41,145 nucleotides of DNA from Gammaproteobacteria bacterium. Lineage in GTDB: Bacteria > Pseudomonadota > Gammaproteobacteria > SZUA-152. The first letter of the stretch is position 1; the number at the start of each line of letters is the position of its first letter. This document shows, piece after piece, positions 507-8,692 of this stretch. The stretch lies in contig JAADIL010000277.1 in NCBI GenBank assembly GCA_013151355.1, forward strand, positions 1-41,145, in the 5' to 3' direction. Below the pieces are notes generated by a model. The model saw nothing but the letters and a program-made list of their open reading frames with translations, did no database searches and was not told where the DNA came from. A program made the position numbers and the translations under genes.

Positions 507-911
507 TTAAATAGCGGCTTCGATGGAAGGCATGGATGAACGCGACTTGGTCAGAACCATGCCAAGGTTGGCAGATTTGCGACAAACAAAAGTTGCTACA
601 TGTTCTTCATTGCTTTTGGAGCGCAAAAATACGTGTAACAAATTATCACTGTTAATAATGATTTCCTGAAAATAATGGTGGTTATCATCTTCCACGCCAC
701 GGGCCTTTTTAAACATGCTCTCAATCAGAGACACATTGGTTCCCTGAAAAAGGTCTGCGGTTGCAGCGGCAACAACCTCCAGCACTTCAGCCGGGTGTGA
801 ATCCACAGTCTTGGCACTCAGTAGCATACCTGTGCTGAGGTCTACGAAACCTGCGGCGACACATTCCGGAATGGATGCGATGGCTGTTTGTAGGGCTTTA
901 TCTAATGACAT
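507..911 (-). CDS. Roadblock/LC7 (MglB / CvnB-like) domain protein
   Basis: 134 aa. The pattern ...IPECVAAGFVDLSTGMLL...AAATADLF...EIIINSDNLLHVFLRS...FVCRKSANLGMV matches the Roadblock/LC7 alpha-beta-alpha layout. It is the last gene of an operon with a small GTPase. Confidence 0.75.
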   Translation of the reverse strand: MSLDKALQTAIASIPECVAAGFVDLSTGMLLSAKTVDSHPAEVLEVVAAATADLFQGTNVSLIESMFKKARGVEDDNHHYFQEIIINSDNLLHVFLRSKSNEEHVATFVCRKSANLGMVLTKSRSSMPSIEAAI

Positions 912-944
912 TTTATTTCTCCTTGACAGTAAATGATTTGCGGT

Positions 945-2306
945 TTATGACGACGCAATATGCCGTCCGTTGCTCATGCCGGAATTTGCTACCGCCAACG
1001 CAAATTCCTCCAGAAATTTCACCTGAACATCTGATTGCACCCAGCGTGGCTCAATGCTGCGCGCGGTTTCCAGAGCATCCAGGGCGGTTTCACCTTCCCA
1101 GATTAATTGCGCAACCAGCATGGTACCGGTGCGCCCCATACCTGCCTTGCAATGCATGGCAATGGCCTCACCCTGTTCAGTCAATCCCCCCATCTGTTCG
1201 CAAAACTGCAAGGCAGCTTCAATGGTGGGCACGCCCATATCCTTGATTGGAAATGCAATTCCCCTGATGTTGTATTCAGTCAGTATGGTCGGATCAATTG
1301 GCCGGGTTGTCAGGGAAACCAGTACGCTGATACCTACTCGCTGTAACGCAGCGAGGTCGTAATCCAGTTCGATTAATAATCCGGGACGTGGCGTACCGGC
1401 CAGATCACCTTTTCTGAGCCAAAGAAAATTGCGTGGCCCAAAGGCATCACTTTTGTATTTCCGGGCCTCTTCGGGTACTTTGGGGCGAACCGTTTCAAGC
1501 GGTGTATCCGGCGTATTGACGACTTCTGTTACCGGATCATTCAGATGTTCATCGGGTGTGTCCGGTGAAGAAACACAACAGGAACCACTGCGAACAAAGT
1601 CTCTGGCAGCTTGTGATTGTGGTGCAGCAAAAAAATCGGCAGTGGGTCGTGCTTCATGAATCCAGCCACCGGCCAATAATGCTGTTTGCCCACCGAGCCT
1701 GATTGCCTGCTTCTGGTTGTGCACAACCACCACCACAGCACGGCGTTCAGCCTCCATAAGCAGATAATCCAGCAGGCGATGTGTTTCTTCCTCACTCAGC
1801 CCGGCGGTGGGTTCGTCCACAAAAATTAATCTGGGGTTGGCTGCTACGGTGCGGGCAATTGCCAGATGGCGCTGCACCGCCAGTGGAAAATCCACGGCAT
1901 TATCGTTCAGCCGGTCGACCAGTTCAGTCAGGCCTGCCTTGCCCAACAGGCGTCGTGCCACATCTCGTTGCTGGGAGATATCCAGTGTATGGCGTTCGGG
2001 CATATCATTAACAATATTTTCACGAATACTGGCCATGATGAGTCTGGTTTTCTGCGCAACAAGTGCAGGCGATTCAGACTCTCTCAAAGGCATGCCGACA
2101 TATTCGACATTGCCCCAGGTGCGCAAGGAAGGGTTGGCATTGTTAAGACCGGAAAGCGTCCGCAACAAGGTCGATTTTCCGGTGCCAGCAGGGCCCAGCA
2201 ACACGGTCATTCCTCGCTCGGGAATGTCCAGGTCGATACCGTTAAGAATAATTTTGTCACCAAAAGCGACACCGTACTCTCGCAGGCACAGAAGCGATTC
2301 GCTCAC
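945..2306 (-). CDS. Fusion protein: N-terminal PstB-like ABC-type ATPase (no permease partner) and C-terminal Cys-based dual-specificity/tyrosine protein phosphatase
   Basis: 453 aa with a GTG start. Walker A is GPAGTGKST, Walker B is LIFVDEPTAGL, H-loop is VVVVHN. The tail QKQAIRLGGQTALLAGGWIHE...FF..P.S..ARDFV parallels PstB. The LSGGQ signature position reads FPLAVQ. A Pro/Thr-rich linker follows, then the PTP loop HCKAGMGRTG (HCx5R[ST]). Confidence 0.85.
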   Translation of the reverse strand: MSESLLCLREYGVAFGDKIILNGIDLDIPERGMTVLLGPAGTGKSTLLRTLSGLNNANPSLRTWGNVEYVGMPLRESESPALVAQKTRLIMASIRENIVNDMPERHTLDISQQRDVARRLLGKAGLTELVDRLNDNAVDFPLAVQRHLAIARTVAANPRLIFVDEPTAGLSEEETHRLLDYLLMEAERRAVVVVVHNQKQAIRLGGQTALLAGGWIHEARPTADFFAAPQSQAARDFVRSGSCCVSSPDTPDEHLNDPVTEVVNTPDTPLETVRPKVPEEARKYKSDAFGPRNFLWLRKGDLAGTPRPGLLIELDYDLAALQRVGISVLVSLTTRPIDPTILTEYNIRGIAFPIKDMGVPTIEAALQFCEQMGGLTEQGEAIAMHCKAGMGRTGTMLVAQLIWEGETALDALETARSIEPRWVQSDVQVKFLEEFALAVANSGMSNGRHIASS

Positions 2307-2851
2307 GCAGCTTCTCCGCTCAGCCCCGGGTCCAGAGAATAAAGCAACGCCTGAACCAGCATCATGACATCATCATGCTGACGGGCATCTACCTCAAACA
2401 CCGGAACATTCATATCCAGCTTGGTCAGGGTTGCCTGATAATCTTCCAGTTTTAATCCCTTGCGTAACTCCATTCTCGTAATGCCGATAGCCACCGCATT
2501 ATTTTGAATAAACTCTTTGAACGAATCGACAAAGGCCTGCAAATCTTCCAGCGGAGCCGGGTTGGCATCATCCAGCATAATAATGACGCCAAGACTGCCG
2601 TCGGTCAGTAAATCCCACATAAAGTTGAAACGTTCCTGTCCTGGTGTGCCATAAAGGTGGAGTGTTTCCCCGTTATCCAGGCGCATGCTGCCGTAATCCA
2701 TTGCTACGGTGGTTAACTCTTTTTTATCTTTTGTTTCATCTGTTGCGGCCTGTTCCGTGGAGAATGGAGCAACATCACTGATGGCGGTAATGGCGGTTGT
2801 TTTACCTGCACCCACTGGTCCGGTAAAAATAATTTTGTGCTGACCGATCAT
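2303..2851 (-). CDS. Small P-loop GTPase of the MglA / CvnD (COG2229) type
   Basis: 182 aa. G1 is GPVGAGKTT. Switch II is LHLYGTPGQERFNFMWD followed by GVIIMLD, as I recall for conservon/MglA-like GTPases. Its stop overlaps the next gene's start (GTGA). Confidence 0.85.
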   Translation of the reverse strand: MIGQHKIIFTGPVGAGKTTAITAISDVAPFSTEQAATDETKDKKELTTVAMDYGSMRLDNGETLHLYGTPGQERFNFMWDLLTDGSLGVIIMLDDANPAPLEDLQAFVDSFKEFIQNNAVAIGITRMELRKGLKLEDYQATLTKLDMNVPVFEVDARQHDDVMMLVQALLYSLDPGLSGEAA

Positions 2852-2889
2852 AATTGGTTCCTGTTTTTCTGGTTGTTATCTAATTGTTG

Positions 2890-4071
2890 TTATTTGCTGA
2901 TGTGGCGCAAAATGGAAGCCAGCAACCCGCGTGTCGGAGACCCGTTTGCCCCTTTGGGTGCGATCAGAGAATCTACCCGGCGTATTGCGGGACCTGTTAG
3001 ACCTGTCGCGACTGTCGCACTGTAAAATGAATACACATCGGCCTGATCAATACCCAGACTCTGAGCGATATCATCCAGTGTGCGCGGGTTTCCCGCCCAT
3101 AAAGAAGCAATACGCATGCCATGCGGTGTATGTGGAAGGCGAGGAAAATTTGGCCAGGATTGCAAATAAAATGACATGGATAAATCGGTACCTTCCGGCA
3201 CACGGCCACGGGCCGTACGCAGGGTCAGATCCCATATCAGGTGATTGATGGATATGGATCTCAGGCCATCAGTTTCACTCGTGGATAAGCCTTTTTTACC
3301 TGTGTTGCGAACACGTTTGATTTCTATTGTAAATTCGTCACTCAGTGTTGCCACTCCCAGGTTCTTCAACTGACTGTCTGTCAAGTCGGTATAGACACGA
3401 TCCTGGTCGGGAAGCAGAATAAGTTGGCGGTTTCTCCAGCACTGCACATGGATGATGCACTGTTGCCCGGCGCCCTTTTTAAGGCCAGAGAGAATGCGCC
3501 CCAGGAGATAATCATCCGGGTTGTAATAAAGCTCAGGTTCTTCCCGCATACTGGTCTGTTGTACTGATTTCAGGCTGATGCTCGTGGTCTTGAATCGGGT
3601 ATTCAGTGCGTGGGCAGCTGCATTAACTCCTGATGTATTTAAATCCATTTTTGTTGATGCTCCCGGGTTGTTGTTGGAGGTCGAGGGTTTGGAGGTCAAG
3701 GGTTCTGTGGAGTCAATTTTCCCGGTGGTCTCGGCCACTGGTGGTAGCCCTGTTACCAGGTCGAAAATGGATTCCCACAATAAATCCAGTTTGGCGGGTT
3801 TGGCGACATAAATAGCCCCTTCAAGTTTTACTGAATTCTCTGACATGACAATGGCAGGCAGATCAGGGTGTTGTCGTTGATATTTTTCCCAGGCATTGGC
3901 TTCGCCATCCAGATCAACAATGCCCAGATGTGCGTCCTCATTCTGCGCAAATTTGCAGCGTCCCTTGAAGATAATTTTAAAAATGGTGTCCATCCTGGAA
4001 ATAGATCGCTCATCCATGCTGGCTAAAATAACTTTTATAGGTGAGTGTACTTCTGTTTTCACGGACTTCAT
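2890..4071 (-). CDS. Response-regulator receiver domain protein with an uncharacterised ~270-aa C-terminal region (possible terminal wHTH)
   Basis: 393 aa. The N-terminus has REC landmarks: ILASMDE (acidic pair), LGIVDLDG (acceptor Asp), AIVMSEN (Ser/Thr position), YVAKPAKL (Lys-Pro). A Ser/Thr/Asn-rich linker follows. The C-terminal ...NPRTLDDIAQSLGIDQADVYSFYSATVATGL looks HTH-like. Confidence 0.7.
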   Translation of the reverse strand: MKSVKTEVHSPIKVILASMDERSISRMDTIFKIIFKGRCKFAQNEDAHLGIVDLDGEANAWEKYQRQHPDLPAIVMSENSVKLEGAIYVAKPAKLDLLWESIFDLVTGLPPVAETTGKIDSTEPLTSKPSTSNNNPGASTKMDLNTSGVNAAAHALNTRFKTTSISLKSVQQTSMREEPELYYNPDDYLLGRILSGLKKGAGQQCIIHVQCWRNRQLILLPDQDRVYTDLTDSQLKNLGVATLSDEFTIEIKRVRNTGKKGLSTSETDGLRSISINHLIWDLTLRTARGRVPEGTDLSMSFYLQSWPNFPRLPHTPHGMRIASLWAGNPRTLDDIAQSLGIDQADVYSFYSATVATGLTGPAIRRVDSLIAPKGANGSPTRGLLASILRHISK

Positions 4072-4290
4072 TACTCGCTGTTTGTTATTCGTTATGTCGC
4101 TGAATGTAATTTATAAAACAGGATATGTGAGGCACTGTTTTCTGTGGCTCTACACAGATATCACGCCCGGCACTCATATAAGTGCAATACCCACCATTTC
4201 CTTCAGAGACGGCATCGGGTAAAAATATGAAAACTTTAACAATGGCTTGCAATTCATAATAAAAAAACAGGCAATAAAAAAAGACAAGGA

Positions 4291-4484
4291 ACGTGTATGA
4301 AATAACTTCCCTGTTTGGCGTCCGGGTTTAGTGCGTATTCGTTCGTTCTGATTGAACAAAAGTGCAGGAATAGTTGCCCTGTTTCGAGCTTTTGTGATTG
4401 GAGAACGGGCGCCAACAGTCGGTGCTTCAGGCAAAGAGGGGCTGAAGCCGGGATGCAAAACAGGGAAGTTATTACGTGCGCGTT
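4291..4484. mobile_element. MITE-like long imperfect palindrome (family B, full copy)
   Basis: Perfect 16-nt inverted arms AATAACTTCCCTGTTT (4301-4316) and AAACAGGGAAGTTATT (4458-4473), with further imperfect pairing inward. It shares an exact 31-mer (4341-4371) with 18475-18505. Confidence 0.6.
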
Positions 4485-4615
4485 CCTGAGAGTAACTGGA
4501 AGGTGCAATTGCCCGGGAGGTGAGCAAATAACGATTTGTCCGGGTTCCCCCTGCCCGGAACAAGAATTAAAGGGGAGACAAGATAAAGCCTTTTCAACAG
4601 GCTGAAAGTATTCAG

Positions 4616-5542
4616 TCAGTCGGCATTGAGTGCGGCGCGCAATGTTGCCTGGCTCAGGTGTGGTGCAAACAGCTCAACAAACTCAAAAATAAACCGGCGC
4701 AGGTAGCTGCCGCGACGGATGCCCACCCAGGTGGTGCTGGCCGGAAACAGGTGGATGATGTCGATACGACGCAGCCCGCTGTCACGCTGTGCTTCGAAAG
4801 CCACATCGGCCAGCAGCCCGATGCCCAGACCCAGTTCCACGTAGGTTTTGATGACGTCGGCGTCCAGCGCAGTGAGTACAATGTTTGGTTGTAGTCCGGC
4901 GGATTGAAAGGCGTCGTTGAGCTGGCTGCGTCCGGCGAAGGCAAAATCATAGGTGACGATGGGATGTTCAGCCAGGTCTTGCAAAGTCAACGGTGCCGTT
5001 TTTTCCAGCAGGGGGTGATCTGGTGGCACCACCACACAGTGATGCCAGGGGTAACAGGGCAGAGTAATGAGCCCGTCGGCGGAGGACACGGCTTCGGTAG
5101 CGATAACGATATCGGCCTCTCCGCGCAGGGTTCGGTCACAAATCTGCGTCGGGTTTCCCTGCCGTAATTGCAGGGTAACCTCGGGAAAACGTTGGCGGAA
5201 TTGTTGAATCACCGGCGGCAACACGTAACGCGCCTGGGTGTGGGTGGTGGCCAGGGTCAGGGTGCCACGTGATTGATCGCTGTAGTCTGCGCCGATACGG
5301 CTGATATTTTCTGTTTCGCGCAGTATACGTCTCGCGGCACGGATGATTTCGTTGCCAGGTTCGGTAATGGCGGTAAGGCGTTTGCCCTCGCGGGCGAAAA
5401 CAGGCACACCGAGTTCTGATTCGAGCAGACGTATCTGCTTGCTTACGCCGGGCTGCGAAGTGTACATGGCCGCTGCTGCTTCGGTGATATTGAGATGGTG
5501 ATCTACGACTTCGCAGATGCAGCGCAATTGGTGCAATTTCAT
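4616..5542 (-). CDS. cysB: LysR-family transcriptional regulator CysB (sulfur assimilation)
   Basis: 308 aa. MKLHQLRCICEVVDHHLNITEAAAAMYTSQPGVSKQIRLLESELG...ATTHTQARYVLPPVI...GNPTQI is near-collinear with E. coli CysB as I remember it. It is divergent from a sulfite reductase operon. Confidence 0.9.
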   Translation of the reverse strand: MKLHQLRCICEVVDHHLNITEAAAAMYTSQPGVSKQIRLLESELGVPVFAREGKRLTAITEPGNEIIRAARRILRETENISRIGADYSDQSRGTLTLATTHTQARYVLPPVIQQFRQRFPEVTLQLRQGNPTQICDRTLRGEADIVIATEAVSSADGLITLPCYPWHHCVVVPPDHPLLEKTAPLTLQDLAEHPIVTYDFAFAGRSQLNDAFQSAGLQPNIVLTALDADVIKTYVELGLGIGLLADVAFEAQRDSGLRRIDIIHLFPASTTWVGIRRGSYLRRFIFEFVELFAPHLSQATLRAALNAD

Positions 5543-5756: not shown

Positions 5757-6533
5757 ATGGATGCTTTTCTCATTATTTCAGGCTTTGGCGTAGGCGTTCT
5801 GGTCGGACTTACCGGAGTGGGAGGCGGTGCGTTGATGACGCCGCTGCTGATTTTTGGCTTTGGTATCGCGCCTGCCGTGGCGGTGGGTACGGATCTGATG
5901 TTTGCTGCTATTACCAAGGCCAATGGCGTCTGGGTACATGCTCGCCAGAGTTCGGTGGAATGGTGTGTTGTGCGATGGCTGTTACTGGGCAGTTTGCCTG
6001 CATCCCTGCTGACGTTGCTGCTATTGGGGCAGGTAGATACACACACCGACGCGACGCAGGACCTGATGACCACCACTTTGGGTCTGGCACTGATTGCCAG
6101 CGCTGGCGCGTTGATATTTCGACGCCGTCTGGCGCAAAGCGATACCGGTTTGGTGCATGACGAGACGGGACGCAAAACCCAAATCGCCACAGTGTTAACC
6201 GGTGTAGTGCTTGGAGCGTTGGTGACACTGACCTCGGTGGGTGCTGGCGCGCTGGGAGCAGCGGTATTGTTTTGGCTCTATCCGCGCATGAAGGCAGTGC
6301 GGGTGGTGGGCACCGATCTCGCGCATGCAGTGCCGCTGGCGACGGTTGCCGGTCTTGGTCACTGGCAGCTGGGTACGGTGGACTGGGTGTTGCTGGGTAG
6401 CCTGCTGATTGGTTCGTTGCCGGGCATATACATTGGCAGCCGACTCAGCGCCCATGTGCCGGAAGTCTGGTTGCGTTTGGTGTTGGCCAGTTTGTTATCG
6501 GTGATTGGTGTGCGGTTGGTGTTGTTCGCTTGA
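5757..6533 (+). CDS. TauE/SafE (DUF81) family anion permease, sulfite/sulfate-related by context
   Basis: Polytopic membrane protein. The start MDAFLIISGFGVGVLVGLTGVGGGALMTPLL has the typical family N-terminus, and a second G-rich repeat is in the C-terminal half. The ATG at 5757 is preferred over the ORF-track start at 5718. It lies directly upstream of sulfite reductase. Confidence 0.85.
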   Translation: MDAFLIISGFGVGVLVGLTGVGGGALMTPLLIFGFGIAPAVAVGTDLMFAAITKANGVWVHARQSSVEWCVVRWLLLGSLPASLLTLLLLGQVDTHTDATQDLMTTTLGLALIASAGALIFRRRLAQSDTGLVHDETGRKTQIATVLTGVVLGALVTLTSVGAGALGAAVLFWLYPRMKAVRVVGTDLAHAVPLATVAGLGHWQLGTVDWVLLGSLLIGSLPGIYIGSRLSAHVPEVWLRLVLASLLSVIGVRLVLFA

Positions 6534-6583
6534 GTGTCGCGGGTGCGGGCGCAGGAATCAGGACTTACATTGGAGAAAGAAAA

Positions 6584-8692
6584 ATGACGACGACAAAAAA
6601 CGAGCACTGGATAGAGACTGCGGAGCTGACGCAATACCGTCAGGCGGTGCAGGATGTTTTGGCGGGTGAGCTTGACGAAACCCGTTTTCAGGCCCTGCGT
6701 TTGCAACAGGGTGTCTATGGCCAGCGCCAGGAAGGCGTCAATATGGTGCGTATTAAATTGCCAGGCGGCGTAGTGTCACCGGGTCAGCTGGGTGCCGTCG
6801 CCGATGTGCTGGACAACTATTCCGAGCTGGATATTGCCAGTGTCACCACGCGACAGGATCTCCAGTTGCACAGTATTTCACTGAGTGACACTCCCGCTGC
6901 GCTGGAAAAACTGGCCGAACAAGGCCTGACTTCACGGGAAGCCTGTGGCAACACCGTGCGTAATATCACTGCCTGCCCGCTGGCGGGTGTCTGCCCCTGT
7001 GAGCACAGCGATGTGCAGCCTGTGGTGGATGCAGTGGCACAACGTTTTTTGCGACACCCGTTGACCCAGCATTTACCCCGCAAATTCAAAATGAGTTTTT
7101 CCGGTTGCGAAGCGGATTGCGCGCAGGGGTTGTTTCATGATCTGGCTGTTATCGCCGTAAAGCGTGATGGTGTATTTGGTTACAAAGTGTTGGCAGCAGG
7201 CGGTCTTGGTCACAAGCCTCGTCCGGCCATTACGCTGGAAGAATTTGTTGAAGAGTCAGATTTGTTGCCGGTCATTGAAGCGGTACTGGCCTTGCACCAT
7301 CGTTATTCGGATCGTAAGCGTCGTGCCCGGGCACGCATGAAGTTTTTGCTGGAACGGTTGGGCGAGGCCGAATTTGTGCAGAAGTATCAAGTGGAATTAC
7401 AACGCACCCGGCAGGTGTATGCCAGCGATGCCTTGCCTGAGGCAAACTGGGTCGCGGCGGATGAGACCGTGAAGTCCAAAATCTCTGCTACAGGTGCACC
7501 GCGTGGTGCATTGCAACAACGACAGGCAGAACTGTATGTATACCCGGTGAGCTTGCCCCTGGGGGATTTGAGTTCAGCACAAATGCACGGTCTGGTGGCA
7601 TTGTCCGAACAATATGAAGCTGTGGAAATGCGTGTCACCCAGGATCAAAATCTGATGCTGTTGAATATTCCGCAAGACGGACTACAGGCTGTAAAAGACG
7701 GTATACGTTTGCTGGATCTGGCTGCGCCCGCTGCCGGTGATGATGTGGTGGCCTGTCCCGGTACCTGGACATGCCGTCTGGGTATTACCGCCTCGCGGTT
7801 GGTGTGCCAGGAGTTGAGTGGTGGTGAAAGTGATCTGCGTATTCGGGTCAGTGGCTGTCACAACGGTTGTGCGCAACCTTACGTGGGTGATATCGGTATG
7901 CATGGCGAAGGTCGTCGCATCAATGGAAAGTTGATTCCGCATTACCGCCTGCATTTTGGTGGCGATGGCCGTAACGGTGGCAAGATTGCCGTGCGTGGTC
8001 CTGAAGTTCCTGTACGCATGGCACCTGCGGCGGTAAAACGTGTTAATCGTGAATATGAACGTACACGTCAGGCTGAAGAAAGTTTTCATGTCTGGGCACA
8101 ACGCCAGGAAGAAGGCTATTTCACCCAGCTGTTACAGGATCTAACGGTGATTAGTGGCCCGAATAGTGAGTGGTTGTCAAAAGATTTTGGTGAAACAGAA
8201 GACTTCCGCGTGTTGGCATTGGGTGGTGGCGAATGCATGGGTGCAAAACATGATGTGGTGTCGGCAAGTTTCTCCGAGGCAGCACATGAGCGGGAATATC
8301 GTCAGGTGTTTCAACTGGCGAAAAAAGAAGATCAGGCGCTGGACTGCGCCGAAGCTATTGCACGCCTGGTAGCACAGGCGTTATTGCATGCCGGAGGCGA
8401 AAATGTTTTGCCGGATGATCTGACCGAGCTTGCCGGGAAAATCGCGAAACAGACAGACGCAGCGCAGCATCTTGCAGAATCACTCACGGTCTTTATTGAG
8501 GAAATGCAGAAATTGCGTGCAGATTTTGATGATGCCCGTTTTGAAAAACTGGCAAATGCGCAAGACTTGTGGACCGTGTTAGTGGCAAAAGCCTGTGAAT
8601 CAGTAGATGTGCAACTGGATGTGCAAGCGTCATTACCGGAAGTTGCGCAGCTGGTGGCCGTGGGCGAAAAGAAATTGCAGGTGTCTGCCTAG
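6584..8692 (+). CDS. cysI: Assimilatory ferredoxin-type (NirA/CysI-like) sulfite reductase hemoprotein with a ~180-aa C-terminal extension
   Basis: ATG at 6584 follows GGAGAAAG. The siroheme/[4Fe-4S] Cys motifs are ACPGTWTCRLG (C-x5-C) and SGCHNGCAQ (C-x3-C). Two nitrite/sulfite-reductase repeats are present. It is flanked by cysB and cysH. Confidence 0.85.
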   Translation: MTTTKNEHWIETAELTQYRQAVQDVLAGELDETRFQALRLQQGVYGQRQEGVNMVRIKLPGGVVSPGQLGAVADVLDNYSELDIASVTTRQDLQLHSISLSDTPAALEKLAEQGLTSREACGNTVRNITACPLAGVCPCEHSDVQPVVDAVAQRFLRHPLTQHLPRKFKMSFSGCEADCAQGLFHDLAVIAVKRDGVFGYKVLAAGGLGHKPRPAITLEEFVEESDLLPVIEAVLALHHRYSDRKRRARARMKFLLERLGEAEFVQKYQVELQRTRQVYASDALPEANWVAADETVKSKISATGAPRGALQQRQAELYVYPVSLPLGDLSSAQMHGLVALSEQYEAVEMRVTQDQNLMLLNIPQDGLQAVKDGIRLLDLAAPAAGDDVVACPGTWTCRLGITASRLVCQELSGGESDLRIRVSGCHNGCAQPYVGDIGMHGEGRRINGKLIPHYRLHFGGDGRNGGKIAVRGPEVPVRMAPAAVKRVNREYERTRQAEESFHVWAQRQEEGYFTQLLQDLTVISGPNSEWLSKDFGETEDFRVLALGGGECMGAKHDVVSASFSEAAHEREYRQVFQLAKKEDQALDCAEAIARLVAQALLHAGGENVLPDDLTELAGKIAKQTDAAQHLAESLTVFIEEMQKLRADFDDARFEKLANAQDLWTVLVAKACESVDVQLDVQASLPEVAQLVAVGEKKLQVSA

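Follow-up and report, generated by a model that had tools for sequence, protein, structure and literature searches.

A Group 3-type MglA GTPase locus with an ATPase-phosphatase fusion and a divergent Roadblock-fold protein in a gammaproteobacterial genome

A four-gene operon and its proteins

We analyzed a contig of 41,145 nucleotides (nt) from a member of the Gammaproteobacteria (GTDB lineage SZUA-152; GenBank assembly GCA_013151355.1, contig JAADIL010000277.1), hereafter the window, focusing on an operon of four genes, A to D, near its left end. A encodes a receiver-like protein, B a small GTPase predicted to belong to the MglA family, C a fusion of an ATP-binding cassette (ABC) ATPase with a predicted Cys phosphatase, and D a divergent Roadblock-fold protein (Table 1). 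The four open reading frames (ORFs) lie co-directionally on the minus strand, just as the initial annotation of this DNA had described them, with gaps of 38 nt between A and B and 33 nt between C and D, and with a GTGA tetranucleotide common to the stop of B and the start of C (direct sequence read: ...GCTGCGTGAGCGAA...). This overlap suggests translational coupling, which may yield B and C in stoichiometric amounts. The terminator-like hairpin that had been placed after D is likewise real: a simple terminator scan of the window did not report it, and it was found by folding (-26.1 kcal/mol, z = -4.8 against shuffles, with none of 200 shuffles equally stable). The earlier calls of a P-loop GTPase for B and of a PstB-like ATPase joined to a CX5R phosphatase for C also stand; those of a receiver domain in A and a Roadblock domain in D hold at the level of fold and remote homology, and not as matches to the Pfam families Response_reg and Robl_LC7.

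B matches Pfam ATP_bind_1, Ras and Roc, contains YGTPGQERF, and finds Sec4, Rab and MglA among PDB sequences, reaching Thermus thermophilus MglA (3t12) only at E 2.4e-4. Its motifs comprise G1 (G11-T19), switch I (T47/T48), G3 (G68-T-P-G-Q72), a G4 equivalent, T125-R-M-E128, and G5, D155-A-R157 (VDAR). Across 13 aligned homologs G4 is variable (TRMD, THMT, NFIS, THCD, TKMD) and DAR nearly invariant. These are features of the Group 3 MglA systems, which were defined computationally, are almost exclusive to the β- and γ-Proteobacteria, and are arranged as DUF>MglA>MglB(>MglB); in their GTPases the [NT]KxD Lys is missing from G4, and G5 has the unusual form DAR (Wuichet and Sogaard-Andersen, 2014, PMC4316618). 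B shares 53% identity with its Neisseria gonorrhoeae homolog, and 33-39% with CvnD-type proteins of Streptomyces and "ATP/GTP-binding" proteins of Deinococcus. On pairwise identity and motifs, which are the basis of its placement among the MglA groups, B is predicted to be an MglA-family small GTPase of Group 3.

A is recognizable mainly through its structure. Searches against Pfam and NCBIfam at E up to 1 returned neither Response_reg nor any other family, sequence searches of the PDB gave no significant match, and the homologs number only 97, none carrying a Pfam domain. Scanning the 72 members of the A-family alignment with Pfam gave weak TadZ-like_ARD and FleQ matches in a few relatives only, and weak matches to winged helix-turn-helix (wHTH) families in eight members. 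The AlphaFold2 (AF2) model (mean predicted local distance difference test, pLDDT, 80.6) has three parts: an N-terminal domain of (beta-alpha)5 topology at pLDDT above 90, a disordered, Ser/Thr-rich linker (residues 115-177), and a C-terminal module. Foldseek matched the N-terminal domain to receiver and pseudo-receiver domains (E ~1e-2, template modelling score, TM, ~0.5-0.6), and hhalign aligned it with bona fide receiver (REC) domains at a probability of 78.7% (E 1.7e-5, 97 columns). In that register D53 of A takes the place of the phospho-acceptor Asp of REC domains, S77 that of the conserved Ser/Thr, and K91-P92 that of the Lys-Pro. D53, K91 and P92 are invariant in the 72-sequence alignment and D20 nearly so; W280, G289 and W306-P307-N308 are further invariant residues. 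The active-site residues sit at the canonical strand ends of the AF2 model, making D20/E21, D53, S77 and K91-P92 a candidate phospho-acceptor site. We conclude from model and profile that the N-terminus of A is probably a receiver-like domain, recognizable at remote-homology level, with an intact acidic pocket.

The C-terminal module (A-CTD) is modelled as an alpha/beta domain followed by three helices and a strand (~318-361) of winged-helix-like appearance; Foldseek with full-length A returned matches covering the N-terminal domain only, and none for this module. A hidden Markov model (HMM) of A-CTD matches protein K of Rhodocyclaceae, 269 residues long and encoded ahead of the GTPase (E 1e-38), and, in Sulfurifustis, the C-terminal end of a GAF-HisKA_2 kinase-like protein (E 6.5e-25). 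The N-terminal partner of A-CTD is thus interchangeable, being receiver-like in A, GAF-HisKA_2 in Sulfurifustis and a short N-terminus in K, and the gene that encodes A-CTD always lies immediately upstream of the GTPase gene, whatever that N-terminal domain is. From this constant place and the swappable N-terminal domains we infer that A-CTD is the partner of the GTPase. Both halves of A also connect it to Group 3: its N-terminal and A-CTD profiles match the Neisseria Group 3 "DUF" protein upstream of mglA (E 1.6e-12 and 1.4e-8). The published description gives this DUF a variable linker between an N-terminus that Phyre2 predicts to be receiver-like and a wHTH-like C-terminus, with no Pfam match (PMC4316618).

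Full-length homologs of C with at least 54% identity number more than 120; the C query matched at least 1,536 sequences, of which the best 120, those listed, are all full-length fusions. Motif conservation was scored over 121 homologs. The ATPase half is intact in Walker A (G38-T46), the Q-loop (Q85), Walker B with its catalytic Glu (D164-E165) and the H-loop (H196), and its signature motif LSGGQ is replaced by F140-P-L-A-V144 in the window and by LPLGV in the family consensus. PstB is the best match of residues 8-239, by sequence and in the PDB (E 9e-22, LSGGQ aligned to FPLAV), with the PstB-type C-terminal region included. It differs from PstB in its score against NCBIfam TIGR00972 (E 9e-40, 136.6 bits against a cutoff of 343.2), in its signature, in the fused phosphatase and in the absence of PstA, PstC and PstS nearby. 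No pstSCA or any other permease genes lie in the window, and the sub-cutoff score, the lost LSGGQ and the lack of neighboring permease genes rule out a PstB transporter role. The phosphatase half scores 61.8 bits for Pfam Tc-R-P (cutoff 27) and 45.6 for PTP-SAK; its closest PDB entries are a dual specificity protein phosphatase family protein (E 1.5e-19) and DUSP23 (E 2e-11). It has a general acid, D356, in KDMGVP and a catalytic loop, H385-C386-KAGMG-R392-T393 (HCKAGMGRTG), and these motifs, together with an inter-domain S240-G-S-C-C244, are 90-100% conserved. C is therefore best described as a predicted fusion of a PstB-like ABC ATPase with a DUSP23-like Cys phosphatase (DSP) whose catalytic site appears intact.

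D gave no Robl_LC7 or other family match in Pfam or NCBIfam, whether searched as a single sequence or as every member of its alignment, and neither D nor its profile significantly matched the PDB by sequence. Its AF2 model (pLDDT 83) has an alpha-beta-beta-alpha-beta-beta-beta-alpha topology, for which the top 50 Foldseek matches are exclusively Roadblock, MglB, MglC and LAMTOR structures, including a Streptomyces Roadblock/LC7 protein, MP1-p14 and Asgard Roadblocks; the model superposes on MglB-type 1j3w and 3t12 with TM ~0.65-0.70. Membership of the CvnB/MglB family by sequence is ruled out (hhalign probability 3% against CvnB). D is conserved far more strongly than B and C: in related genome loci it is 77-99% identical to the window protein, against 59-91% for C and 57-96% for B, and in Ralstonia it is still 67% identical where C and B are at 37-38%. 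Its homologs number 3,487 at 90% clustering; an exhaustive profile search gave 584 clusters at 50% identity, 340 of them with E <= 1e-10. Cys17 is present in 81% and Cys110 in 67% of the family representatives that have a residue there, and we speculate that these cysteines may respond to redox state, as may the SGSCC motif of C. From these models and alignments, D is likely a divergent, extremely conserved Roadblock-fold subfamily, which we call D-type.

Domain fusions show with what D-type domains are combined elsewhere. Four independent clusters join the D domain to a C-type phosphatase domain (P0340, P0449 and P0478 by Pfam, P0432 by the C profile), whose E values against the phosphatase half in the C profile are 1e-36 to 1e-53; three join it to Hanks Ser/Thr kinases (P0389, P0408, P0484), one to REC-PATAN (P0480), and two to MglA-type GTPases (P0345, P0351). 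The GTPase halves of the last two were not detected by the B HMM and were both detected by phmmer against the PDB, the N-terminus of P0345 matching Myxococcus xanthus MglA at E 8e-15 and P0351 matching Arf and MglA at E about 1e-5. Most of the fusion proteins have continuous low-complexity linkers.

Table 1. Features of the operon and its immediate downstream region (window coordinates).
Feature	Position	Strand	Basis
Gene A	2890-4071	minus	ORF, 393 aa
Receiver-like (CheY-fold) domain of A, residues ~9-110	3742-4047	minus	AF2 fold, Foldseek, hhalign
C-terminal module of A, residues ~179-393	2893-3537	minus	AF2 secondary structure, A-CTD HMM matches
Gene B	2303-2851	minus	ORF, 182 aa
Gene C	945-2306	minus	ORF, 453 aa, GTG start
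ABC ATPase half of C, residues 1-250	1557-2306	minus	Pfam ABC_tran 21-168; PstB closest structure
Phosphatase half of C, residues ~285-440	987-1454	minus	Pfam Tc-R-P/PTP-SAK/DSPc 291-417
Gene D	507-911	minus	ORF, 134 aa
Terminator-like hairpin after D	437-480	minus	17-bp stem, then UUUUAUU
Gene G, 5' part only, cut by window end	2-319	minus	CxxCxxCC/YkgJ-family Cys-cluster fragment, from translation

Extent and conservation of the gene cluster

The nearest relatives of the window are uncultured Chromatiales and Gammaproteobacteria metagenome-assembled genomes (MAGs). All 12 related genome loci show B, C and D in colinear order, and in nine of them A was detected as well; the same gene set also occurs in Sulfurifustis variabilis, Exilibacterium tricleocarpae, a Rhodocyclaceae MAG, a 556-kb JGI contig and a Ralstonia solanacearum megaplasmid. 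The recurrent order is A or another A-CTD protein, then B - C - D - E - (F) - G - H. Here E is a canonical Robl_LC7 protein, F a peptide of 47-53 residues, G a CxxCxxCC protein, and H a protein of ~530 residues with Fer2, FAD_binding_6, NAD_binding_1 and Bac_globin domains (2Fe-2S/FAD/NAD/truncated globin). E, an MglB-type paralog, lies downstream of D in most relatives and is missing from the window and from its closest relatives (L001, L002, L004, L012, L025-L029), which have the order A-B-C-D-G-H; by analogy with that order, H should lie just beyond position 1, the left end of the window.

G had been set apart from the operon as a probably separate transcription unit. The hairpin between D and G agrees with separate transcription, but G is not unrelated to the cluster: a gene for it follows D or E in L001, L002, L004, L007, L009-L012, L017, L021 and many metagenome loci, usually with H next, and a full-length ortholog in L002 matches PF03692 (E 4.6e-7). 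G and H are co-conserved with the cluster.

We extended the survey with a metagenome scan seeded on D, which drew 80 loci from more than 472 relatives and in which counts were restricted to assessable loci. C is immediately upstream of D in 43 of 54 and E immediately downstream in 46 of 65; of the other genes, 40 of 50 loci have B, 27 of 35 have A or K, and 29 of 40 have H. With 12 of 12 genome loci and the C-D adjacency in 43 of 54 metagenome loci, the B-C-D arrangement is far beyond chance. Five loci (L030, L042, L048, L078, L093) keep the gene set with its order shuffled, as C-A-B-D-E-H, E-C-D-H-A-B, C-D-D-A-B-E, or C-D-E with a divergent A-B. Retention of a gene set through rearrangements of its order is a classical indication that the genes are functionally coupled. 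The proposal that GTPase, Roadblock, receiver-like protein and ATPase-phosphatase form one conserved functional unit is thus borne out by neighborhood, the genes being co-localized across genomes.

Several loci depart from the common pattern. In L009 (8472-10547), as in L010 and L011, a REC-PAS-GGDEF-EAL protein of 691 residues lies between E and G and A is lost, leaving in L009 only a 54-residue remnant (5288-5452); the insertion hints at a c-di-GMP connection of the module. A second Roadblock pair stands downstream of H in Sulfurifustis (L017, 12449-13491) and in the Rhodocyclaceae MAG (L019, 2794-5286), made of protein I (211-217 residues), which matches Robl_LC7 weakly and shares 28% identity with the first Neisseria "MglB", and of protein J, a Robl_LC7 protein. 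Two Rhodocyclaceae loci, L019 and L020, encode an identical D protein; in L020 no GTPase precedes C, and the sole GTPase seen is at the far end of L019, after the A-CTD-only protein K. Tandem D-D duplications, usually followed by E, occur in seven loci (L046, L059, L062, L068, L070, L085, L093).

In Ralstonia solanacearum (L024, AP024102.1, 5201-11637) the cluster runs from a 379-residue and a 124-residue protein through GTPase, C, D and E to proteins of 188 residues (weak helix-turn-helix, HTH) and 126 residues. An OmpR-family regulator, annotated hrpG_3, comes immediately downstream, and insertion sequence (IS) and transposase genes flank the cluster. A link of this cluster to virulence regulation is possible; we found nothing on these hrpG-adjacent genes in the searched literature.

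Group 3 MglA systems and a possible adaptor role for D

The window locus has a DUF directly upstream of the GTPase, with a Roadblock-fold protein downstream, in the layout and within the taxonomic range of Group 3 loci such as the Neisseria NMB0476 region and those of Acidithiobacillus and Methylomonas. We assign it to Group 3 because of the non-NKxD G4 and DAR G5 of B, its identity to the Neisseria member, and the match of the A profiles to the Neisseria DUF, which A also resembles in lacking a Pfam match and in its receiver-like N-terminus, disordered linker and winged-helix-like C-terminus. It differs from Group 3 in three respects: the ABC::DSP fusion is inserted between GTPase and Roadblock; the Roadblock is of the divergent D type, with the fold of the downstream MglB but neither its Pfam family nor similarity to CvnB, and not of the canonical MglB/CvnB type; and the cluster extends to the CxxCxxCC and Fer2/FNR/globin genes. 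The study that defined Group 3 mentions no phosphatase, and its table has no gene between MglA and MglB in the Group 3 entries (PMC4316618). Both C and D are absent from Neisseria.

The searched literature contained no experimental characterization of Group 3 systems and no description of the ABC::DSP fusion or of the D-type subfamily and its linkage to C. We conclude that the A-B-Roadblock core is an already described, experimentally unstudied Group 3 MglA system, and that fusion C, the D subfamily, and the co-conservation with the CxxCxxCC protein and H are absent from PMC4316618 and from the literature searched. The initial annotation had not recognized the four-gene architecture as a described system: that was incorrect for the core, and correct in that we found no characterized system of the same composition.

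We suggest that the locus is an expanded Group 3 MglA module in which D is an adaptor linking the state of the GTPase to phosphatase C, a reading that we hold with slightly more confidence than doubt. Gene content, folds, motifs, co-conservation and fusions lead us to infer the following contacts and direction of signaling. B would be the GTP/GDP switch and A its dedicated upstream partner, with the D53 pocket receiving a phosphoryl group or other input, and the C-terminal module of A would either act on B, as an effector or in the manner of an exchange factor for guanine nucleotides (GEF), or give a DNA-binding output through its winged helix. D would bind B as MglB binds MglA, as a homodimer in the window locus and probably paired with E elsewhere, either setting GTP hydrolysis or serving as a platform. 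By also docking the phosphatase half of C, D would allow the nucleotide state of B to gate or localize the phosphatase. The ATPase half of C would most likely be a slow, ATP-gated dimerization clamp or timer on the phosphatase rather than a transporter motor. Candidate substrates of the phosphatase are the Ser/Thr-rich linker of A, B, D, or an unlinked target. G and H would be part of this functional set, probably supplying a redox, O2 or NO signal or forming the regulated output.

The adaptor role is proposed for D because it combines a Roadblock fold and exceptional conservation with fusions to phosphatases, kinases, REC-PATAN and MglA. Functional unity is proposed because B, C and D are colinear in every genome locus, remain linked in metagenomes, and stay together despite shuffled order. 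A clamp is preferred to a motor for C because its nucleotide-binding and catalytic residues are intact, its signature is degenerate, and permease genes are missing.

A number of observations weigh against this reading. For about 11% of D genes (L051, L058, L061, L065, L071, L094), no A, B or C lies within 7 kb, a sensitive HMM search of these loci for a hidden A, B or C found none, and two loci (L092, L095) are C-C-D without a GTPase; the partners are therefore not obligatorily linked. GAP-like (GTPase-activating protein-like) behavior of D is argued from fold analogy alone, because D does not resemble CvnB in sequence, and its match to E, the canonical Roadblock of the cluster, covers only the last 34 columns (hhalign probability 70%). 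Some of the D fusions, for example P0340, could be gene-calling read-throughs. The redox role is read solely from the identity of neighboring genes, and given the hairpin G and H may have their own transcription. Finally, no kinase able to generate a substrate for the phosphatase is encoded in the window.

The same departures could be read to mean that C and D are a phospho-signaling unit of their own, a phosphatase with its Roadblock regulatory or substrate subunit, and that A-B is a separable neighbor whose GTPase is not in control. C-D is indeed the tightest linkage in the metagenome loci, C-C-D exists without a GTPase, A-B lies apart from or divergent to C-D in L042, L048, L078 and L093, and the phosphatase::D and kinase::D fusions have no GTPase domain. 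We nevertheless regard this alternative as unlikely: the GTGA overlap in the window suggests coupling of B to C, B accompanies the cluster in four-fifths of assessable loci, MglA::D fusions exist, and the structurally characterized prokaryotic Roadblocks among the fold matches of D, MglB and MglC, all work with an MglA GTPase.

The initial annotation had framed the locus as a rewired conservon, descended from or equivalent to the actinobacterial CvnA-D module (Mfp in mycobacteria), in which a response regulator has taken the place of the sensor kinase and a phosphatase has joined. There is a likeness: both are compact operons that pair an MglA-family GTPase with a Roadblock and an HTH-containing (wHTH) accessory protein, B is 33-39% identical to actinobacterial "ATP/GTP-binding" conservon GTPases, A-CTD is fused to a GAF-HisKA_2 kinase-like protein in Sulfurifustis, and one canonical conservon, on a plasmid of Streptomyces sp. 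BB1-1-1 (L110, 939-5833: kinase, roadblock, DUF742, ATP/GTP-binding protein), has a cytochrome P450 gene directly behind it, a heme-enzyme association parallel to the globin-reductase partner H. The window locus, however, lacks a sensor kinase, DUF742 and a CvnB-type Roadblock, has another gene order, and carries a GTPase of another group: B has Group 3 motifs and is nearer to the Neisseria protein. ORF listing and Pfam found no kinase gene in the A-D operon; the actinobacterial plasmid conservons that we fetched start with a "nitrate- and nitrite sensing domain" kinase. Aligned by hhalign with five DUF742 proteins, A-CTD scored a probability of 7%, confined to the HTH, which rules it out as a CvnC/DUF742 homolog, and none of the 72 A-family members, A included, has a DUF742 match in Pfam. 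CvnB similarity resides instead in cluster paralog E (hhalign probability 99.2%). The published classification also keeps Group 2, the conservons, apart from Group 3 (PMC4316618). The framing thus fails, and with it the idea that a receiver protein has taken a "kinase slot", A being the ancestral partner in Group 3. We consider descent from a conservon quite improbable; judging from sequence comparisons, the conservon is more likely a sister system (Group 2) of the Group 3-type locus of the window.

Another possibility is that the cluster serves the Fer2/FNR/globin enzyme H, as its accessory, maturation or regulatory genes, the GTPase and Roadblock delivering a cofactor or partner with no signaling involved. 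The frequency of H and of the Cys-cluster protein G around the cluster, the highly conserved Cys17 and Cys110 of D and the invariant SGSCC of C would fit such a role. We give it little credence: B is an MglA-type switch by its motifs and not a G3E metallochaperone GTPase, Exilibacterium and Ralstonia have A/B/C/D/E with no H nearby, and the fusions of D to kinases and REC-PATAN point to signaling. A conflict, defense or toxin-related system, suggested by the names of the best Pfam phosphatase matches (Tc-R-P, "polymorphic toxin"; PTP-SAK, "Swiss Army Knife"), by weak PADLOC matches of the ABC half to mad3, mad8, AriA and PtuA, and by the IS and transposase genes around the Ralstonia copy, is highly improbable, since the PADLOC matches of C are generic ABC/AAA P-loop matches and A, B and D have none, the window is ordinary chromosome, the cluster's neighbors are redox and signaling genes, and the 67-99% conservation of D across orders runs counter to the rapid diversification that conflict systems typically show. 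With no specific PADLOC model match, membership of a known anti-phage defense system is ruled out.

Returning to the expanded Group 3 module, a wider generalization, which we offer tentatively and would sooner doubt than assert, is that D-type Roadblocks are widespread bacterial adaptors that pass the nucleotide state of MglA-family GTPases to enzymes of protein phosphorylation and dephosphorylation, with the cluster tied to a globin/Fe-S redox sensor. The enzymes served would be an ABC-gated Cys phosphatase in the window cluster and Hanks-type kinases elsewhere. Bacterial Ras-like GTPases are understood almost solely through Myxococcus polarity, and to a smaller degree through the conservons of Streptomyces and Mycobacterium; to our knowledge the large β/γ-proteobacterial Group 3 has no known function. 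The cluster adds enzymatic partners that suggest an output for Group 3, namely a predicted Cys phosphatase that would be gated by an ATP-binding cassette and joined to the GTPase via the proposed adaptor D. If this is correct, the control targets of non-motility bacterial small GTPases become directly testable, and bacteria would possess a link from G-protein to protein phosphorylation, possibly under O2, NO or redox control, as a prokaryotic counterpart of Ras-to-effector-kinase and Ragulator-type signaling. The family is large and phylogenetically broad, and is also present in a genetically tractable plant pathogen, Ralstonia solanacearum.

Likeness to other switches, and neighboring loci

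The MglA/MglB pair of Myxococcus xanthus and Thermus thermophilus resembles the window locus in combining a Ras-like GTPase that lacks the G3 Asp with a Roadblock-fold regulator, and in having a receiver-domain protein tied to the switch, RomR in the MglA system and A in the window. B differs in its lack of a canonical NKxD, and D shares the common fold only, with no sequence match. In contrast to the MglA system, the window locus has no motility genes nearby, and its phosphatase, ATPase and redox partners have no counterpart there.

There is also an analogy with eukaryotic Ragulator/LAMTOR-Rag and Ras-effector kinase coupling, in which Roadblock-fold platforms join small GTPases to kinase or phosphatase signaling. 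The D model matches LAMTOR2/3 (MP1/p14) as well as it matches MglB, and D-type domains are fused to Hanks kinases and DSP phosphatases. The likeness is one of analogy only: the window locus has no membrane anchor and a GTPase of another family, and descent is unsupported.

In a Neisseria gonorrhoeae sequence (L023, NZ_CP119140.1, a chromosome filed as "plasmid" in PLSDB) the Group 3 "DUF" and mglA-like genes are split at 3885-5530, into A-like pieces at 3885-4514, 4465-4659 and 4666-4983 and GTPase pieces at 4995-5237 and 5162-5530, none annotated in the record. They appear to be frameshifted pseudogenes.

Stand-alone D genes reveal a second context for D, in the vicinity of TPR/DUF2076 and NHL-repeat genes. 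In two high-GC contigs (L051, 6137-9136; L071, 6050-8939) D is flanked by a conserved small Cys protein with the motif ...PCIE.GGK.IHEI... and no Pfam match, which is ~128 residues long in L051 (6137-6523) and called as 162 residues in L071 (6050-6538). A TPR/DUF2076 protein and a large NHL-repeat protein follow downstream.

The remainder of the window is ordinary gammaproteobacterial chromosome, with genes for a CysB-like LysR regulator, TauE, sulfite reductase, RlmL, NhaA, RNase G and YhdP; scanning it for Rfam families and tRNA genes gave no matches. Between A and the LysR gene is a gap of ~540 nt (4072-4615) with only short, implausible ORFs and no Rfam match, presumably the site of the promoter and regulatory region of the A-D operon. 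On the plus strand at 6530-8692, a sulfite/nitrite reductase-like ORF of 720 residues has its Pfam matches in the N-terminal part (best stretches in residues 63-291) and none listed in the C-terminal part; it shares 4 nt with the end of the TauE gene upstream and has the divergent CysB-like LysR regulator (4616-5542) as a neighbor.

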